IMG/VR virus record: IMGVR_UViG_2713896779_000022
DNA from: a virus
Taxonomy: Duplodnaviria; Heunggongvirae; Uroviricota; Caudoviricetes
Direction: 5' to 3' (one strand)
Length of the DNA: 35,191 bases
Shown here: piece by piece, positions 8,945-35,191 of the stretch
Layout of the letters: every line of letters starts with the position of its first letter
Position numbering within the stretch: the first letter of the stretch is position 1
The notes under the pieces: model-generated
Database searches by the model: none
Seen by the model: only the letters and a program-made list of their open reading frames with translations
What the model was told of the DNA's origin: nothing
Made by a program: the position numbers and the translations under genes

Positions 8945-9508
8945 ATGCTAAATAATAGAGATATGAATATTAATGAACTTAAAGACTGTATTCACTATGA
9001 AGTAATCGGTAGCGAGCGTCCTTTCTCCTGGCGAAAGGCAATTGTTCGCGCAATAAAACATAGAAGAGTTCGTTATTTATTTTGGTGGCGCATAGCCAAA
9101 TACCTTTTTGATAAAGGCGGATACTGTCGGAAGATTGCGGGGAAAATAGAACGTTTCATTCTTGATAAATATAATGTAACAGTCCCTTTAACTGTAAATA
9201 TAGGGAAAGGCTTTGATATTTCTTATCTCAATAGTGTTGTTATCGGTCACAAAGTAACCATCGGTGAAAATTGTTCAATAAAACCAGGGGTAACTATTGG
9301 GCTACGTGGTGATTTTAATGATATGGATATTGTTATAGGACATAATGTGACCATTGGTTGTAATGCCACCATTCTTGGTGGCAAAGTGCGTATAGGAAAC
9401 AATGTCACAATAGGTGCTCATGCATTGGTATTGCATGATATTCCTGATGATTCAACATTCATCACTAAATTTCAGTCTGAAGTTATCTGCTCGTCCTCCC
9501 GCACATAA
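8945..9508 (+). CDS. hexapeptide-repeat (left-handed beta-helix) O-acetyltransferase, WcaB/CysE/LacA-like; cargo gene at the Z/fun position
   Basis: Repeated [LIV]-G-x-x-[VI]-x-I-G hexapeptides ([45 protein letters not shown]); strongly AT-rich versus flanking tail genes; convergent with G. Confidence 0.8.
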
Positions 9509-10089
9509 CCCTGATTCATCAGCTCTGGCCATACGATATCCGGAGCTGTACTGGTGTCAATTCGACTCACTAATACTCTGTATTTTCTCCAGGAATCCAG
9601 TTGTGAATTTTCCTCGTTTGTTGCTATTTCAAGATTAACTGCATCCTGCAGAATTGCGATGTTATCTGTTGCCTCCTGGATCAACCTTGCCTTTTTCTCT
9701 TCCGCTTCCCGTATCCGAAACAGTTTTTCTGCTTCCTCATCCTTCACCCAGGATACGCCGTCCCACTTCTGATACTCCCCTGCTGGCGACAACCAGGTGA
9801 CATTCTCTGGTAGCGGTCCGGGTTCAGAAATAAACAACGCGTCCCCCGAGGCCACGTCATAGACCGTTTTACCACGATGGTCTTCAACAATATTCCACGA
9901 TTCATTTTCACTGTTAAAAACTGCCACAAAGCCAGCAGGAATTTCCGGTGGGGCGATATCTGTAGAATTAGCTGGCAGCCCTGTATGAGGTGGAATATAT
10001 GCGTCACCTTCACCAATAAACTCATTAGTTCCGGCCAGCAGGTTATAAATTTTTACAGTACGTGATTGTTCACTCATTCTGAATGCCAT
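9472..10089 (-). CDS. G: tail fiber assembly protein (Tfa/gpG-like chaperone)
   Basis: 205 aa immediately downstream of H, start overlapping H stop (TAATG). Confidence 0.85.
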
Positions 10090-11957
10090 TATGCAAGCCT
10101 CACAATATAATTAAATGCGATGTTTTTAACGGTGTTTTCCGCGTTACCAGCAGCGTTAACGGTGATGGTATGTCCATGTGAACCAATCGCAACAGAGTGC
10201 GTATGAGCGCCAATACCAACTGTATGTGCATGCGCCCCTGCACTTGCAGCAGTGCCTGATACTGAGTGGGTGTGTGCACCAGAAGAAGGCACTGTTCCAT
10301 TCCCCACGACCGTGCCACTTGATGCACCATCAAGCCAGTCGAAATTCATACCTCCACTGTTTGGTCTCCTTAATGGAACGGTATGAGTATGTGCGCCAGC
10401 ACTATTTGCAGTACCAGATACATTGTGGGTATGTGCACCTGTGTTATTCGTTGATTTAGTACCGTAATCAAACGACGATGTGGTTTTCGTACCCAAATCC
10501 GTACTGGATGCGCTGGCACTGTGGGTGTGCGATTTAATGCCATCCTGTTCCTGAGACAATACGGCTCGACCACTTGCGGGCTTGCCCTTGATTGTCCAGC
10601 CACGCATATCGGGGAGTACACCAGAGGGATAAGCTGCTGCAAGCAGGGGATAGGTTGTTTTATCAAAAGTCTGCCCCTGCATAACGGCATAGCCTGTAGG
10701 CACTGAATCAGAAGGCCACGGAATCGCCGCACCTACAGGAAATGAATCCTGCGGCGTCCATGCTGTCCAGTCACCCGTTGAGTACTGGCTGCGGGTATAG
10801 CTTCTGGATGTGTTATACACATAGTAAATCTGTGTTATCCCGGCACTTTTAAGCACAACCAGTGTACCGGCAAGATTCTCTGGGTATTTCAGCGCTGCAC
10901 TTGTATTGGCATTCGCAGGCTGATGGTACAGCCCCGGCGTTTTGTAATTATCCAGATTCTGGTTTGCACCAATCTCAATACTCTGATCGTTAAAAATATC
11001 CTGTGATGTAACATTGACATCATTGGTCAGTGGTTTGCCATTAACCTTACGTCCAGAGGGCACACGCCCGTTTGCATTGTCATTAGCAGCTTTCACCGCT
11101 TTCGGAGTCGCGGCAAGCGTTTCAGACGTGCTGTTGGTTGCACTAGTAAGCTGGACTATCCCTTTTTGTGCTGTTGTTGCATCCTGTGCGGTGTATTTGC
11201 CATTAGCAAGGTCATATGCTGCCTTTACCGCCTTTGGCGTTGCCGCCAGCGTTTCAGAATCGCTATTGGTGGCGCTACTGAGCTGAACAAGGCCTTTTCG
11301 CGTCGTGCTGGCATCCTGCGCAGTATATTTCCCGTTAGCAAGGTCATACGCGTCCTTTACTGCTTTCGGCGTTGCAGCTTGTGTTTCAGACACGCTGTTA
11401 GTGGCGCTACTGAGTTGAACAAAGCCTTTTGCGGTCAGCGAGGCGTCCGGGTGACGTCGTGACTGTTCATGCTCTTTCAGTTTGTCATCCACGTAATCCA
11501 CTGTGGCCATCACCATGGTGTTATCCACGGTAAGTGCCACGGTGGCAGTGCTGGATACGGTCAGAATGGTGCGAAATGTCTGTGCACGACCGGACCCTTC
11601 GGCAACGGCTGGCTTGTAACTTTCGGCAGTATTGCCTACCGCGATTAAATCGCCGTGCTCATCAAACACACCAATTTCCCGGATCCAGAATCCGCCCGTT
11701 TCTGGAGGAATAGCCAGCTCCGCAATAATGCGGTTCTGATGTGTTGCGTCCAGGAAGACGCGATTAACGGTATGTCGCCACACCTCACGCACAAGACGGG
11801 TCTGCTTACTGTCTGGCGTGGGTAAAGTACCGCCGCCGTCACCCACGGCCATATGTGTCAGGCGGACGGGTTTACCATCTGGTGCGGCTGCCTGCGCTAA
11901 TTTTTTGGCACCCGTATCGGTGATAATGGTTTTAAATTTTCGTGTTGTGGTACTCAT
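10089..11957 (-). CDS. H: tail fiber protein H (mosaic: P2 H-like N-terminus, His-rich distal tip)
   Basis: N-terminus resembles P2 gpH ([62 protein letters not shown]); C-terminal region has repeated GAHTHxV/GAHAHTV motifs and ends [11 protein letters not shown]. Confidence 0.9.
11081..11445. repeat. ~2.75 tandem copies of a 132-bp coding repeat inside H
   Basis: Units start near 11081, 11201 and 11333; encode three ~44-aa repeats ([39 protein letters not shown]). Confidence 0.8.
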
Positions 11958-11959
11958 GC

Positions 11960-12490
11960 TTAATCGTCCGGATAGATGGTAATGACTTCACCGTCGTAAG
12001 TTGCTGCCGCTGCGAAAATATCTCCCGGGATCTCCTGAATGATATTCAGCCCTGTCATGTGGCGGCTGACCGGGCGGGCATCAGCAATCAACCGCTCCAT
12101 TTCCAGATACATTTCCTCCGTCACGCCACTGTCCAGCGTGCCGACTTCAACGGTAAATGTTCCCGGTTCTCCGCCGAACTCCCACCACTCAGACACACGA
12201 ATGAGGTATCCCAGCGGCTCAATGGCCCGGCGCAGTGCGCTGATGGTCCCTTTGTGTCGGTGTATCAGCCATGCATCACGAATAACCTGTCGCTTTGTCT
12301 CTTCCGGCCAGTTGCGATCCCAGCGGTCAACGGAAAATGCCCAGGCGAGATAAGGCAGCAGATGCACCGGGCATGTGTCCGGCGACCACAGCGTGTTGAG
12401 GTCTACCGGAATGTCTGTAATGCGCGTTCCGACGGCTTCGGCACAACGCATGAAATTGCTGGCTGATGGTGGTAACAGCGAATTACTCAT
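11960..12490 (-). CDS. I: baseplate/tail protein I
   Basis: Start at MSNSLLPP (ATGA overlap with J stop); 176 aa as P2 gpI. Confidence 0.85.
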
Positions 12491-13379
12491 TGCGCCCACC
12501 TTCGCTGATGGTGAACGACTCACAGCGCGCCGCCTGTATGTCGCTGATGGCCATATTCTGTGTGGGTTCGATTATCTCCACGCGTTGCACACCGTGCACA
12601 TGCAGTGCGGCAGCAATGGCGGACAACGCCACGTCCTGACCGATAAGCCCCTGCTCAGCCAGCCACTTCCTGAACGACGATTCCGCCGCAGCCAGAATAG
12701 GTTCGGATTCCGGGCCGGGGTAAAAGTACAGTTTTGCATTCAGCCGCCATGTCACGATTCTGGCACTCTGTACGGTCAGGCGGTCGGCCACCGGACGGGT
12801 ATCCTCTGCATTCAGAACGGCGCGAACGGTATTAAGCAACGCCTCCGTTGCTGTGCCGTCGCCTTCAGTGGACAGGATGGAAACCGTCACATTTGCCGGA
12901 GACGGGCTGATGGCCCGCGCATCACGCACCAGACCGCTGGCGCTGCGGGCAAAATACTCGTATGCACCTGACGGGCCAGCAACACTCAGGCCGTCGTACG
13001 CCCGCTGCGCCCGCAGTCTCAGTGAGGTGTCACTCTCCATCACCGCGTCGGTGGTATCCGTTGCCGGAGTGATGGTCAGGCGCTTTGTGTTCATATTGCC
13101 CGCGAGGTTGTCCAGGTCTGTCCCGGTGCTGTGGCTTAACATGCAGGCCCGTGCCCCCTCATTGACCCGCTGGCGTAACAGCATTTCACGAAACGCTGTT
13201 ATCTGGGCGATAACGTTCAGGGGTTCCGATTCCAGCTCCAGCGCGGCGGAGACGGCTTCACGCTGTTCGGCGGGATAAGCCGCAATCATCATGGCCTTTG
13301 TGTCAGCCAGAATTGCCTCAAAATCAGGCTCCGCGATAATGGCGGGGTCCGGTAACTGGGAAAGGTCAACAGCAGGCAT
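12483..13379 (-). CDS. J: baseplate assembly protein J
   Basis: 298 aa; position between W and I; P2 gpJ-like. Confidence 0.9.
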   Translation of the reverse strand: MPAVDLSQLPDPAIIAEPDFEAILADTKAMMIAAYPAEQREAVSAALELESEPLNVIAQITAFREMLLRQRVNEGARACMLSHSTGTDLDNLAGNMNTKRLTITPATDTTDAVMESDTSLRLRAQRAYDGLSVAGPSGAYEYFARSASGLVRDARAISPSPANVTVSILSTEGDGTATEALLNTVRAVLNAEDTRPVADRLTVQSARIVTWRLNAKLYFYPGPESEPILAAAESSFRKWLAEQGLIGQDVALSAIAAALHVHGVQRVEIIEPTQNMAISDIQAARCESFTISEGGRNE

Positions 13380-25081: not shown

Positions 25082-26041
25082 TTACTCCTTGTCCATTGCG
25101 TACAGCCCATTAACCAGAGCAAACTGTGGCACCCCGTCCGCGATGAAAGTCGCATTAACTCCGCAGGCTTCGCGGATAGCGGGTGCCACAATCTCCGCCC
25201 CGCCACCGACAACCATCACCCGCCCGTAACCCGAAAAGCCCGCCAGCGCGCGGATCACGCGTTGTTTCAGTGTTTCTTCCTTTTCACGAATAACCGCCAT
25301 CAGGCTGGCGTAATGCGCGTCATTGTGGATGTGCTGGCGCAACCAGGCTTCATCATGGCGATGTTCGATAATGGTATTGGCGATGTGGTGACTGGTACGC
25401 ATACCGTTAGTGGCCATCACCGACAGTACGGCATCGGCCATCAGGGAAACGCCTACGTGTGGATCGCAAAACACCTGGCTGATACCTGCCAGTTGCCCCT
25501 GAACCTTTGCCACATCCAGTGTGGTTCCGCCTAAATCCACAATCAGCAGGGATTCAAACGGACTCATGTCAGCCAGTGCTTTAAAGCCAGCCGGAATGGA
25601 TTCAGGCATAACCCGTACGTTACGGATAGTGAATGCTTCGCCGTTCTGGTACTCCACCGGGCGCATAACGTTCGATTTTTTGCGGCTGATGTTGGCCATA
25701 TCCGGCTGTGCGTTTGTGTCGAAATACTCGCTCAGTGGCAGGGTGACAACCACATCCACCTCCTGTGGCGTGATGCCTGATTTGACCAGTGCGTGATGAA
25801 TGGCAATGACATTCACATCGCTGTACTGGTATTGCGTGTCGGTCGTCTGGACAAAGCGATCGCTGACCGGATCAAAACCATAGCGCACGCCATCAAGCAT
25901 GTAGTTCGCGGGCTGCGTGCCACCGAACGGCGCAGACCATTCCGACTTGAAGCTGTTCGGGCTGATGGCGTTGCGGCGTTCGCCGTTCTCAGCCCATGCC
26001 AGCTTGATGTTGGTGGAGCCGTCGTCGATACAAATTTTCAT
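25082..26041 (-). CDS. parM: ParM/StbA actin-like plasmid segregation ATPase
   Basis: 319 aa; collinear resemblance to R1 ParM along the whole length (IDDGSTNIKL.W, ISPNSFK.EW, YSDVNV.A.HHAL, IRNV.VMPESIPAG, DLGGTTLD, GGGAE, LVNG.Y). Confidence 0.9.
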   Translation of the reverse strand: MKICIDDGSTNIKLAWAENGERRNAISPNSFKSEWSAPFGGTQPANYMLDGVRYGFDPVSDRFVQTTDTQYQYSDVNVIAIHHALVKSGITPQEVDVVVTLPLSEYFDTNAQPDMANISRKKSNVMRPVEYQNGEAFTIRNVRVMPESIPAGFKALADMSPFESLLIVDLGGTTLDVAKVQGQLAGISQVFCDPHVGVSLMADAVLSVMATNGMRTSHHIANTIIEHRHDEAWLRQHIHNDAHYASLMAVIREKEETLKQRVIRALAGFSGYGRVMVVGGGAEIVAPAIREACGVNATFIADGVPQFALVNGLYAMDKE

Positions 26042-26072: not shown

Positions 26073-26181
26073 TTTACAGGATTTTTAAATCCCGCTTTTG
26101 CCTGTTTTGTGCGCGCCTCATATATCGCGGCACGTTTTTTGCTCATTTACGGGATTTGTGAATCCCGTTTCTGTCTGTTTT
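26073..26181. repeat. parC-like centromere/operator: two ~36-bp direct repeats each with a GGATTT(n2-4)AAATCC palindrome, flanking the parM promoter
   Basis: TTTACAGGATTTTTAAATCCCGCTTTTGCCTGTTTT (26073-26108) and TTTACGGGATTTGTGAATCCCGTTTCTGTCTGTTTT (26146-26181); the second copy overlaps the last 12 codons of gene A. Confidence 0.6.
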
Positions 26182-28959
26182 TTTGTTTCCACTGGTCAGG
26201 CTACCCCGCAGCAGGTCTGCTTTGCGGTGGGCGCGTTCAGTGGTTTCACTGATTCTCTGTGCGTGCTCTGCGTCACGGATGGCGCGCAGCATGTCAGAAA
26301 GCACGGTAACGGGGGTGGGCATGGTGTTCTGGTCCTGCTGAAGTGTGGATACCAGACGTGCGGCGGCTTCGGGGTCTGATGCCCCCAGCTGTTCCAGATA
26401 GCTGGCGACCGGGTTATGGCGGATCTCCGTGCTGCTTACGCCGTGATTACGGCTCAGGCGCTGCCAGAGCTGCGTGATTTGGCTGTCCGGGCGGGTATCC
26501 GGTTTGCGTACAATTTCAAATCCCTGCGGTGCAATGATGCTGCCGTCAACGTACAGGCTGCCGCCCCGTAACAGGTGCTGCATCTGCTGTTCACCAATAT
26601 GCAGGCCGAGAGATTCAGCAGACTCCCGCCATTCTTTAGCGAGTAACTCGTGGTTATCAGGCAAAGGCTGTGGCTGTTTGCGGCTCTGTGTCCAGTTCTG
26701 CATTTCATCGCTGCTGTTTTTTGCCTGTTTGTCACGAAGCGAACGCATCAGCGCCCGGCGTTCGTGCCGTTTCAGTGAATGCATCCATTCGTTCACTTCA
26801 ACGCCGTCAGGAAGCTGCGGCCACGGTGCTGGCCGTTCTTCCGGCTGTTCTGTCCCGTTGTTGTCCGTTTCCTGTACACGGGGACAGTTATTGCCACGAG
26901 TCCAAGGGGCGGCAGGGCCGCCCTGAAGGTCAAAACCATTTTCGTGGGCGTTGTCTTCCGGTTCTGGTTTACGTCTTACCAGCTTCCAGTTATCCGGATG
27001 CGTGCACACACGGGAGGATTCCCCGATGAGTGGTGACCAGATCCCGTAAATCTGTACGCTCTGTTCGCCGTAATCGTTCAGCTCATCTGCGAGGTCGTAG
27101 GCGGTGCGAATCAGGTAGTCCTTGCGTGGAACAAGCACGCCACCCTGTTTTTCAATGTAGGTGGCAAAACACCCGGCATCGGCGGCAGCGAGTACCGCAT
27201 CCATTGCATCATCTTTCAGCCGTTGCGGGCCTTCCGGATTGCGTGCCATCTGGCTGGCAAGGCGGCGCAGTTCACGCCACACCTGACGGGAGGGGATGCC
27301 AAAGAACTGGAACTGACGGACCCGGTGAAGGCGCGCCCAGCCGATGGCGCGCTCCACGCTCTCGGCCATTGATTTACCTGTTTCGTGGTCAACGCGTGGC
27401 TTGCCCGTTTTCGGGTCGATGCCATCCACGGCGCGGCTGTCCAGGTTCTTTCCGATGTAGGTGGCGATGTAGCTGGTTGGCGTGCCTTTTGAGCCGTCGA
27501 CGTACTCCGCCTTAAAACGCGGAGTTATGTCATTGCCCTGCTCGTGGCGGTCTTCCTGAATGGCAATATCGCAGACGTGGGACACGATGGTTACAATCTC
27601 GTCAGGATGAGCAAAAACCATCATGTGCCAGTGCACCGTGCCGTCATGATGAGGCTCCACCGTGCGGATGCCATACCAGCGCAGGCCGTCGCGGTTCAGT
27701 TTTTTGCGGACCGCCGCAAAAAACGTGTTAACCAGGTAATCGCTGGAGTCGTGCATAGTGGCCCCGTTCCATTTGGGATTCGGATGACCGTTCTCCGTTG
27801 TTGCGTGGTATTTTGACGGGCAGGTGACAGTCAGAAACACCGCTCTGTCGCCACGGGCTTCGGCCAGAAGTTCCAGCCCCTTCATGGTGGCCATCATTTC
27901 TGCCTTACGGTGAACCGGGTTACTTACTCCCGCGTAATACACTGTCTCGAGATCAATCGTGAACCCGTCTTCATTTTCCAGCATGAAACTTTTCAGGAAA
28001 TCGCGTGTTTTCTCGCGCTGTGCGCGAAACTCGCTTAACGCGTCCTGGCTCAGATAGGGTGATGTTTTTCTGGAAACCAGACAGGCGGCGCGGAGTTGTT
28101 CTTCTCTCCACTCGCAACGTAACAGCCACAGTTTGCGTTTCCACCATTCCGCACAGGTCAGGCGAAGGATTGCGCCCGGCAGCAGCTCCGTGTCCGGTTC
28201 GTTCCTCCGGTCTTTGTCTGTTGTCAGTGCGTCATAATGTGGAGGCATGGCGTGCAGGTGTAACGCCATGCGGGCCAGCATCTGATACGCCTTCAGCGTT
28301 ACATCCATGGTCAGTTCGCCATCAGTCGCGCCAAAGCCATCGCAGAGTTTTTCGAAGGTGCTGCTGAACATCGCCGCCGTCATGGTGGCCAGCGTCTGTA
28401 TCTGGTGTTTGTTGAGCTGCGGCAGGTAAAGCAAATCGTCCAGGCGTTCGCGTCCGGCAAGGGAGCGATAACCCGGTGTCAGCCAGCGGTGATCGGTGCG
28501 GTCCAGACGTTCGAATATTTTGCGCAGGGTTCCGCGCGCGTAGCGTTCAGCCTGCCAGCTCTTTTTGCCTTTCTGGCGATCGGCTTCCTGTTTTTTGCGC
28601 AGGAAAGAGAGGTGGCGGCTCAGAGGTTCACGCAGATAAACGGGAAGCACCTTCAGTGTGGCAAAAGCACGGGCCACCGGGTCTTGTTCTGTTGCCTGAC
28701 GCTTGCTGATGATGCTTTGTGCCAGCTTTTCACGCTGTCCGGCTTCCTCAAGGGATGCCATGAGTTTTTTACCCACGGTGGATTGTGCGAAAAAGGCTTC
28801 CTCCTTCGCTTCCTGTTCTTCCAGAGCCTTTTTGTCTGCCTCAAGGTAGTAACGGATGGCGCGTTGCAGGTCGGTTTCAGTTTCCTGCCTGTGCTCCGTA
28901 AATCTGGCCGGATCAATGGCTGGCCGTGGTTCATTCCAGCTCCATGCAAACTCATTCAT
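26143..28959 (-). CDS. A: replication initiation protein A (rolling-circle endonuclease)
   Basis: Start at MNEFAWSW (ATGA overlap with upstream ORF); contains HUH-type motif TVHWHMMVF and catalytic Tyr pair in YIATYIGK; ~938 aa, longer than P2 gpA. Confidence 0.9.
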   Translation of the reverse strand: MNEFAWSWNEPRPAIDPARFTEHRQETETDLQRAIRYYLEADKKALEEQEAKEEAFFAQSTVGKKLMASLEEAGQREKLAQSIISKRQATEQDPVARAFATLKVLPVYLREPLSRHLSFLRKKQEADRQKGKKSWQAERYARGTLRKIFERLDRTDHRWLTPGYRSLAGRERLDDLLYLPQLNKHQIQTLATMTAAMFSSTFEKLCDGFGATDGELTMDVTLKAYQMLARMALHLHAMPPHYDALTTDKDRRNEPDTELLPGAILRLTCAEWWKRKLWLLRCEWREEQLRAACLVSRKTSPYLSQDALSEFRAQREKTRDFLKSFMLENEDGFTIDLETVYYAGVSNPVHRKAEMMATMKGLELLAEARGDRAVFLTVTCPSKYHATTENGHPNPKWNGATMHDSSDYLVNTFFAAVRKKLNRDGLRWYGIRTVEPHHDGTVHWHMMVFAHPDEIVTIVSHVCDIAIQEDRHEQGNDITPRFKAEYVDGSKGTPTSYIATYIGKNLDSRAVDGIDPKTGKPRVDHETGKSMAESVERAIGWARLHRVRQFQFFGIPSRQVWRELRRLASQMARNPEGPQRLKDDAMDAVLAAADAGCFATYIEKQGGVLVPRKDYLIRTAYDLADELNDYGEQSVQIYGIWSPLIGESSRVCTHPDNWKLVRRKPEPEDNAHENGFDLQGGPAAPWTRGNNCPRVQETDNNGTEQPEERPAPWPQLPDGVEVNEWMHSLKRHERRALMRSLRDKQAKNSSDEMQNWTQSRKQPQPLPDNHELLAKEWRESAESLGLHIGEQQMQHLLRGGSLYVDGSIIAPQGFEIVRKPDTRPDSQITQLWQRLSRNHGVSSTEIRHNPVASYLEQLGASDPEAAARLVSTLQQDQNTMPTPVTVLSDMLRAIRDAEHAQRISETTERAHRKADLLRGSLTSGNKKTDRNGIHKSRK

Positions 28960-29345
28960 GGCTGGTATCCCGTCACGCGCTGCCACTCCTGCGAGAAGAG
29001 GGCAGAAAGGCGGTTAAATTCAGCGGTGTATTCACTCAGCGAGGCACACCCGCCAGCAGTGCGATGCGCCAGCATTGCCGCAAATACGGAGGCCGGGGAG
29101 TCGTAATACGCCAGCAGTGATTCTCCGTGTGGTGTCAGGCAGTGCAACGCCAGCCCGTGTGGTGTGAAGTCCACGCGGTAGCAGTCGTCTACTGTGAAAT
29201 AAAGGGTGTCTGCATTCTCCGGTTTTGTGGTGCGTGCTCTGTTGTCACGACCACGGATGTAGAGATCAAATAATCCCTGAAGAACGGGAGCCAGACGGGT
29301 GTCCTGTGTGCGCACCCATCTTGTGAAGTCATGAGCGTCAATCAT
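28956..29345 (-). CDS. hypothetical early protein, translationally coupled to A
   Basis: 129-aa ORF whose stop overlaps the A start (ATGA). Confidence 0.6.
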   Translation of the reverse strand: MIDAHDFTRWVRTQDTRLAPVLQGLFDLYIRGRDNRARTTKPENADTLYFTVDDCYRVDFTPHGLALHCLTPHGESLLAYYDSPASVFAAMLAHRTAGGCASLSEYTAEFNRLSALFSQEWQRVTGYQP

Positions 29346-34358: not shown

Positions 34359-35191
34359 TGTACTGGCAATAGCGGACACTACCATTTGTTCTTTTTTTAA
34401 GCAGCCATCTGATGATATTTTTCCCTGAAGGCTGCCGGGGAGATATTCCCCAGACGAGAGTGACGACGCTGACGATTGTAGAAAATCTCAATGTATTCCC
34501 GTATTACTGAGATGGCTTCATCCCGGTTATTAAAACGATAGTGGCTCAGGCTCTCATTTTTCAGCGTTCCCCAGAAGCTTTCCATCGGAGCGTTGTCGTA
34601 ACAGTTACCTTTACGCGACATTGATGTTTTCAGACCAAACTGCTCCTGTATGACCCGGTAATCGTATGCGCAGTACTGTGAACCTCGATCAGAGTGGTGG
34701 ATTAGCCCGGCAGGTGGGCGCTGGCTCCTGAGCGCCATAAACAGAGCTTTACCTGTCAGCTCTTTTGTCATGCGCTCTCCCATGGCGTAGCCGACAATTT
34801 CGCACGTATAAACATCTTTGATGCCAGCGAGGTACAACCATCCCTCCTGTGTGGCAACATACGTCAGGTCCGCCACCCAGACCTGATTTGGTGCTGTAGG
34901 AGCGAACGTCTGGTTCAGCAGATTTGGCGCAACTGGCAGATTGTGGTTCGAGTTCGTAGTCGCTCTGAACTTGCGTTTCTGCTTACAGCGTAGCCTTAGC
35001 TCCTTACGAAGACGTGCCAGTCGGTCACGACCAACGATGATGCCATTCTCTGCCAGCTCCGTCTGGAGCCGCCGGGTTCCATATGTTTCGCGAGTGCGGA
35101 TATGTGCCACCTTAATCTCCAGTTTTAGCCGCTCATCACTTTGTTTTCTGTCTGAGGGTTCATGCTGTACCCAGTTGTAATAACCGCTCCT
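34359..35191 (-). mobile_element. IS3-family insertion sequence (distinct from the left-edge IS), inserted in int; continues beyond window
   Basis: Terminus begins TGTACTG at 34359 (IS3/IS150-type end); OrfB-like transposase on the minus strand stays open to the window edge. Confidence 0.8.
34397..35191 (-). CDS. IS3-family transposase OrfB (partial, N-terminal part and OrfA outside window)
   Basis: DDE-domain blocks (VWVADLTYV, HHSDRGSQY, CYDNAPMESFWGTLK); frame remains open upstream of the track start to position 35191. Confidence 0.85.
   Translation of the reverse strand, partial: RSGYYNWVQHEPSDRKQSDERLKLEIKVAHIRTRETYGTRRLQTELAENGIIVGRDRLARLRKELRLRCKQKRKFRATTNSNHNLPVAPNLLNQTFAPTAPNQVWVADLTYVATQEGWLYLAGIKDVYTCEIVGYAMGERMTKELTGKALFMALRSQRPPAGLIHHSDRGSQYCAYDYRVIQEQFGLKTSMSRKGNCYDNAPMESFWGTLKNESLSHYRFNNRDEAISVIREYIEIFYNRQRRHSRLGNISPAAFREKYHQMAA

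Follow-up and report, generated by a model that had tools for sequence, protein, structure and literature searches.

The stretch analyzed here (hereafter the window) comprises 35,191 nucleotides (nt) of viral DNA, IMG/VR record IMGVR_UViG_2713896779_000022 of the Caudoviricetes, and carries on its minus strand an intact tail-fibre gene that starts with ATG and encodes 622 amino acids (aa). The gene was delimited from the list of open reading frames (ORFs) and from Pfam matches to PF12571 (aa 6–153), PF03406 (three stretches), PF07484 (Collar, aa 409–456) and PF03335. A first-pass annotation, made from the letters of the window, had placed it at exactly the same span without naming the strand. 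The order gpV-gpW-gpJ-gpI-fibre-tfa on the minus strand (ORFs and the Pfam families Tail_P2_I and Caudo_TAP) puts it at the position of P2 gpH, and an equal order is annotated in P2, in phage P88 and in many Escherichia coli prophages; the stop codon shares one nucleotide with the start of tfa. Five modules were distinguished, namely a P2 gpH-type N-terminus, three PF03406 repeats, a pyocin knob, a gp37-type collar and a gp37-type needle, and all domain, repeat and needle matches are well beyond chance. Judged from sequence homology, the product is very probably the tail fibre, built from exchangeable modules, with which a P88/P2-like temperate myovirus integrated in E. coli binds its receptor. 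Its features are as follows.

10089..11957, minus strand: tail-fibre gene, 622 aa
11499..11942, minus strand: putative baseplate-attachment domain of the P2 gpH type at the N-terminus (aa 6–153; PF12571, E = 2.5e-53)
11307..11438, minus strand: repeat unit 1 (aa 174–217; PF03406 stretch 173–213)
11175..11306, minus strand: repeat unit 2 (aa 218–261), chimeric between units 2 and 3 of the four-copy E. coli O121 allele
11203..11265, minus strand: inferred crossover or slippage site of 63 nt (gene nt 693–755), identical in O121 units 2 and 3
11043..11174, minus strand: repeat unit 3 (aa 262–305), whose last ~10 residues leave the repeat consensus
10752..10976, minus strand: knob domain homologous to Knob2 of R1/R2 pyocin fibres (aa ~328–402; from profile, model and Foldseek)
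10533..10748, minus strand: collar, corresponding to the first part of T4 gp37 D10 (aa 404–475; PF07484; 75% identity to gp37 811–881)
10383..10532, minus strand: descending half of the needle stem (aa 476–525; 72% identity to gp37 882–931; HxH at 477, 509 and 523)
10293..10382, minus strand: tip subdomain, predicted to contact the receptor (aa 526–555; 3 of 30 columns identical to gp37 932–959)
10143..10292, minus strand: ascending half of the needle stem (aa 556–605; 64% identity to gp37 960–1009; HxH at 562, 576, 585 and 594)
10092..10142, minus strand: C-terminal strand returning to the collar (aa 606–622; 16 of 17 residues, 94%, identical to gp37 1010–1026)

With regard to the N-terminus, the match to PF12571 ('Phage tail-collar fibre protein, N-terminal') reached 180.5 bits against a cut-off of 23, and identity to a P2-like gpH was 75% over aa 7–298, in line with the P2 H-like N-terminus that had been proposed from the letters. 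That proposal had confined the likeness to the first ~170 residues, where it does hold; the similarity, however, runs on through the repeats to about aa 292–298. The fibre of phage P88 is closer still, with 92–94% identity over aa 1–300/311, and P88-type phages (Xuanwuvirus) reach 94% over aa 1–300. The P88 fibre (AIZ95147; Xuanwuvirus, Peduoviridae) shares the N-terminal domain, three PF03406 units and the order of the baseplate genes with the window, but past aa ~292 it has a Gp34_trimer-type C-terminus where the window fibre has the fixed knob and needle. The gpH family of phage P2 likewise shares the N-terminal domain, the repeats and the gene position (V-W-J-I-H-G), while the P2-like H used for comparison differs from the window fibre in its four repeats and its C-terminus of the gp37_C/Gp34_trimer kind.

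The tandem 44-aa repeats noticed in the first-pass annotation correspond to a curated Pfam family, PF03406, whose profile gave 204 bits in three stretches spaced by 44 aa (132 nt). Their reported location, 11081–11445, was about right, since the units map to 11043–11438, but they are far from near-identical: at the DNA level, units 1 and 2 share 78% identity and unit 3 shares 58–61% with the others, the corresponding protein values being 84% and 59–66%. Tandem Repeats Finder returned only 1.9 copies with 82% matches, and a second repeat search returned three copies (100/71/61%). Among solved structures, the Mu gpS fibre (5YVQ/8JU3) can be aligned to one PF03406 unit.

Between the repeats and the collar lies a module missing from the earlier layout, in which the repeats were followed by the HxH-rich tip (HxH, two histidines separated by any residue). 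Searched on its own, this middle segment matched no Pfam family, and a single-sequence comparison gave a marginal match to R-pyocin fibres (E = 0.02). In a library of representatives at 50% identity, 1140 clusters match the segment, and the proteins frequently contain it more than once. A profile of 35 diverse homologous segments matched the pyocin fibre structures 6CL6 (E = 2.8e-18), 6CT8 (3.5e-17) and 6CL5 (9.7e-14) in the PDB, and an AlphaFold2 model of the knob built on the same 35-segment alignment reached a predicted local distance difference test score (pLDDT) of 88.4, with 6CT8, 6CL5 and 6CL6 as its best Foldseek matches in the PDB (TM score 0.65–0.68, root-mean-square deviation 2.2–2.3 Å). 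A model of aa 296–406 from a shallow alignment, whose E. coli homologues were nearly identical, was set aside (pLDDT 45.5). The profile-matched region corresponds to the published limits of Knob2 in the pyocin fibre (PMC6116203). By sequence homology and modelled fold, aa ~328–402 are thus a pyocin-type knob, a module that a recent atlas of fibres already includes among its mobile domains under the name 'pyocin knob'. Knob2 of the pyocin has been argued to be a sugar-binding site (PMC6116203), and by analogy the knob may add such a site to the window fibre. The R1/R2 pyocin fibre (PDB 6CL5, 6CL6, 6CT8) has two knobs against one in the window fibre, and continues after them with a shaft and a lectin domain in place of a gp37-type needle.

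The remainder of the protein (aa 403–622) matched the crystallised tip of T4 gp37 (PDB 2XGF, chain 26–242) with E = 1.7e-82, and identity to gp37 residues 812–1026 was 64.7% over 218 aa, the homology extending across the whole crystallised region (811–1026). The seven HxH motifs at aa 477, 509, 523, 562, 576, 585 and 594 are in register with the gp37 iron sites 883, 915, 929, 966, 980, 989 and 998, which bears out the comparison with T-even distal fibres made in the first-pass annotation. Subdomain boundaries were taken from the literature on gp37 (PMC6957217). T4 gp37 (D10–D11) thus shares with the window fibre the collar, the stem, the seven HxH sites and a gp38-type chaperone gene downstream, whereas its domains D3–D9 are absent from the window fibre and its tip subdomain is replaced. 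Lambda Stf/Tfa and lambdoid Stf proteins (2H10, mEp332, PhiR29) have PF03406 repeats, a needle of the same family (66–81% identity over aa 403–622) and a downstream Tfa, but differ in the N-terminus, which serves a siphovirus tail, and in their tip cassettes; lambda also has an extra HxH insertion.

The segments of the fibre have their best relatives in different phage groups and are separated by sharp DNA breakpoints, as expected from the recombinational exchange proposed earlier. DNA homology to P88 stops at gene nt 877 (~aa 292, within repeat unit 3), and that to phage vB_EcoM-613R2 runs from gene nt 1216 onward. The E. coli relative TUM2820 matches at the DNA level only over nt 1–891 and 1234–1869, with a different middle module, and phage Chuche matches over nt 1–1502 and from nt 1732 onward, the tip between these stretches being a different one. 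Breakpoints therefore lie near aa 292, 406, 500 and 578. Over aa 403–622, identity is 92% to vB_EcoM-613R2, ~81% to lambdoid side tail fibres, 75% to a T-even Mosigvirus and 66% to lambda Stf; this C-terminal module occurs in P2-like, lambdoid, T-even and other phages, and in P88 and the P2-like H the same N-terminus and repeats are followed by other C-terminal modules. In the alignment of relatives, a common scaffold bears two or more alternative middle modules and several different tips. Exchange occurs at several junctions, and one of the exchanged pieces is a short tip cassette within the needle. That P2, Mu, P1, lambda and T-even phages swap segments of their fibres was reportedly recognised by Haggard-Ljungquist et al. 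in 1992.

The number of repeat units varies as well. In closed E. coli genomes we found two units (strain 08_3323), four units (O121 strain RM8352, 14EC020 and TUM2820) and five units (GTEN_23), and the phages Chuche and P88 have three each. Among the 121 closest proteins of a large collection, motif counts ranged from 2 to 6, and lengths followed 44-residue steps: 578, 622, 666 and 710 aa for fibres with the C-terminal type of the window, and 652 and 696 aa for fibres with another C-terminal type. The four-unit protein is present on at least 1000 contigs and the five-unit protein on 308; the identical 622-aa protein has an entry at NCBI, under 'phage tail protein' of E. coli, and is present on 14–17 contigs. 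The suggestion that copy number could vary is thereby borne out, with 2, 3, 4, 5 or 6 units in close relatives. The first-pass annotation had also named what would speak against its mosaic reading, namely an end-to-end alignment with one known fibre family free of repeat-number variation; annotated prophage fibres of E. coli can indeed be aligned with the fibre over its full length, but because repeat number varies, that objection does not apply. In E. coli 2014C-3599 (NZ_CP027435.1, 3278905–3282219), a homologous four-unit fibre gene is broken by an IS3-family transposase.

The fibre of E. coli O121 strain RM8352 (WP_000108489.1, 666 aa; NZ_CP028110) has four units, and its DNA is otherwise identical to that of the window gene. 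In a register-correct comparison, the window gene equals the RM8352 gene minus exactly one 132-nt unit, with zero other mismatches. Unit 2 of the window is 95.5% identical to O121 unit 2 and 94.7% identical to O121 unit 3, with no mismatch once a single 132-nt deletion is allowed, and the loss can be placed at any point of gene nt 693–755. RM8352 also shares ~10 kb of identical flank with the window, together with tfa, the acetyltransferase gene downstream of it and a frameshifted gpU. The same 622-aa fibre occurs at a further locus, L011 (GCA_921293105.1), where the junction falls at gene nt 672–683 (L011 3672–3683) within a 12-nt identity; this different stretch points to a separate deletion event or a different parent allele. 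Taken together, these comparisons show two modes of evolution in this family of fibre genes, recombination at the borders between modules and the gain or loss of complete 132-nt units.

The solved homologues allow a model of how such a fibre would be built and used. Three chains would form one fibre, anchored through the PF12571 domain to the baseplate beside gpI/gpJ. The three 44-residue PF03406 units would make up a shaft segment, whose length would by analogy be set by their number, and the pyocin-type knob would follow the shaft. The gp37-type collar would then lead into a six-stranded needle stapled by the seven HxH sites, which bind iron in T4; each chain would turn at the 30-residue tip, the predicted contact with the receptor, and return to the collar. 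The downstream Tfa, a homologue of gp38 and lambda Tfa, would act as the folding chaperone.

Several points weigh against this reading. Trimer formation, iron binding, the receptor and adsorption are deduced from homology, and any effect of repeat number on fibre length or host range is putative. The three-unit state of the window is that of the assembled sequence. Finally, an 11-bp deletion in a tail gene may mean that this copy of the fibre never enters a particle. This gene, gpU-like and located at 8291..8774 on the plus strand, lacks 11 bp just after ~8551 compared with the intact version in relatives (489 nt) and is split into two frames, so the prophage may be unable to build tails.

The window prophage is probably tail-defective, and it is accordingly quite possible, if somewhat short of an even chance, that the fibre gene, although intact, is a relic no longer in use, without a role in host recognition in this strain. 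Besides the frameshift in the gpU-like gene, this is suggested by RM8352, in which the same gpU pseudogene is annotated along with further frameshifted prophage genes. On the other hand, the frames of the fibre, tfa, gpI, gpJ, gpW and gpV are all intact, as is the replication gene A in the window, and the identical fibre protein lies beside an intact 162-aa gpU in three other assemblies (L009, L012 and L014). Such a history would, moreover, bear on the use of the gene in this strain and not on its identity. With regard to the rest of the prophage, the gpD-like gene of the window (1943..3184, minus strand) is full length at 413 aa and its gene A is intact, whereas RM8352 (L020 4150–4950) has a truncated gpD and a frameshift in gene A, so that beyond the fibre region the two prophages differ.

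A further question is whether the three-unit state is real, or whether the strain truly carries the four-unit O121-type allele and a short-read assembler skipped one unit. It is a fair one, because the window has ORFs of IS3-family transposases at either end, as is usual where short-read contigs break, and because the closest matches in closed genomes, from one O103 and eight O121 strains, cover 2001 bp, corresponding to four units. The contig counts of the four-unit and the exact three-unit protein (at least 1000 and 14–17, respectively) and the identity of the remainder of the locus to RM8352 point the same way. However, 13 of 132 positions distinguish O121 unit 2 from unit 3, and the stretch that they share measures only 63 nt, so k-mers longer than 63 resolve them, and a de Bruijn graph would not jump within the 12-nt identity at which the L011 junction lies. 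The same protein is also found in backgrounds with an intact gpU and additional single-nucleotide polymorphisms, as well as in k141 metagenome contigs, and other 622-aa, three-unit alleles (96–97% identical) occur on contigs of 1.1 and 5.1 Mb. An assembly artefact is thus unlikely, and the loss of one unit from an O121-type gene remains our preferred explanation.

As its needle is gp37-like, the fibre might be thought to recognise the receptors of T4, OmpC and the terminal glucose of the lipopolysaccharide (LPS) core. Collar and stem are indeed highly identical to gp37, and the needles of lambda Stf and the T-even phages belong to the same family. Nevertheless, the segment of gp37 that bears the T4 contact residues for LPS and OmpC is the tip at 932–959 (PMC6957217), and it is precisely this segment that is replaced in the window fibre, whose tip differs in length and bears no sequence relation to that of T4. 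Among relatives, at least four unrelated tip cassettes sit on one scaffold: the tip of the window is also found in vB_EcoM-613R2 and in E. coli prophage fibres, and other tips occur in T4, lambda, 2H10, G2285 and Chuche. Use of the T4 receptors hence appears improbable. Because stem and collar retain 64–75% identity whereas the tip retains 3 of 30 columns, the fibre is best described, as far as its sequence tells, as a gp37-like scaffold whose putative receptor-contacting end is a different cassette, and not as an adhesin of T4 specificity; given this difference, its receptor is not predictable from that of T4.

Two genes lie next to the fibre gene on its downstream side.

9472..10089, minus strand: tail-fibre assembly chaperone Tfa, 205 aa (PF02413, E = 1.6e-39; PHROG 105)
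8945..9508, plus strand: hexapeptide-repeat acetyltransferase (Pfam Hexapep), convergent with tfa and overlapping its 3' end

Tfa is a chaperone of the gp38/Tfa type, with 28% identity to T4 gp38 (E = 3e-19) and 99% aa identity to the Tfa of vB_EcoM-613R2. The acetyltransferase gene, in a slot that we take to be the Z/fun position of P2, has a G+C content of 0.36–0.38 against ~0.5–0.59 in its flanks. It belongs to PHROG 2154, a family without known function, and its best NCBIfam matches (EpsC, CysE and WcaB) were all below cut-off; it may be a moron that modifies surface polysaccharide. The NCBIfam search gave no family for either the fibre or Tfa.

Both neighbours form part of a block of 2059 bp (window 8684–10742) that is 95% identical to phage vB_EcoM-613R2 (ON470591) and holds collar, needle, the same tip, tfa and the acetyltransferase gene, while the 613R2 fibre itself has 948 aa, lacks PF12571 and differs in its proximal part. 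One could imagine that these ~2 kb of needle and tip, Tfa and acetyltransferase constitute a self-contained mobile host-range cassette, in which the acetyltransferase would modify the surface polysaccharide bound by the tip or knob and so shield lysogens and released phage from re-adsorption, and that repeat number would be selected to fit the reach of the fibre to the thickness of O-antigen or capsule. The occurrence of the block at 95% identity on two fibre backbones and the polymorphic repeat number are consistent with this scenario, which we nonetheless consider speculative and unlikely.

The downstream side of the fibre differs from that of P88, which has an invertible alternative fibre end, an inverted second tfa and a DNA invertase there (L005 6855–8900). 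In the window, the genes downstream are tfa, the acetyltransferase gene and gpU, with no invertase beside the fibre, and no long inverted repeats were found in the window; an invertible host-range fibre of the Mu Gin, P1 Cin or P88 type was therefore rejected. The window prophage has replaced the P88-type switch with a fixed tip, tfa and the acetyltransferase gene.

The analysis brings little new biology: all of the modules fall into known families, structural descriptions exist for the PF03406 repeat, the pyocin knob and the HxH needle, mosaicism of this kind was recognised long ago, and the protein itself is in the databases. Its value is that of a clean and well-resolved case of tail-fibre modularity. 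Junctions that tolerate exchange are marked by the natural series of 2–6 units and by breakpoints near aa 292, 406, 500 and 578; they could be of use in designing fibres of the P2 or pyocin type, and the tip cassette defines a specificity class. Furthermore, the 132-nt units are a spot at which assemblies of related Shiga toxin-producing E. coli may differ, truly or artefactually.

A few further observations concern the window as a whole. A promoter and terminator scan of 8700–12600 gave counts at the level of shuffled sequence and was not used, and no tRNA genes were found in the window. Two ORFs of 947 aa (5441..8284 and 26143..28986) were considered as a duplication and rejected, there being no repeat between them: one is a tape measure and the other a P2 gene A replication protein, and their equal length is coincidental. 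The IS3-family transposase ORFs (rve and HTH_21) lie at 61..951 on the plus strand and 34397..35110 on the minus strand, which suggests that the contig is bounded by insertion sequence copies. Lastly, a ParM/StbA actin-like segregation gene (25082..26041, minus strand) lies inside this P2-like prophage and resembles the segregation systems of plasmids, here within an integrated phage; a neighbour of a partitioning family is present in O121 RM8352.

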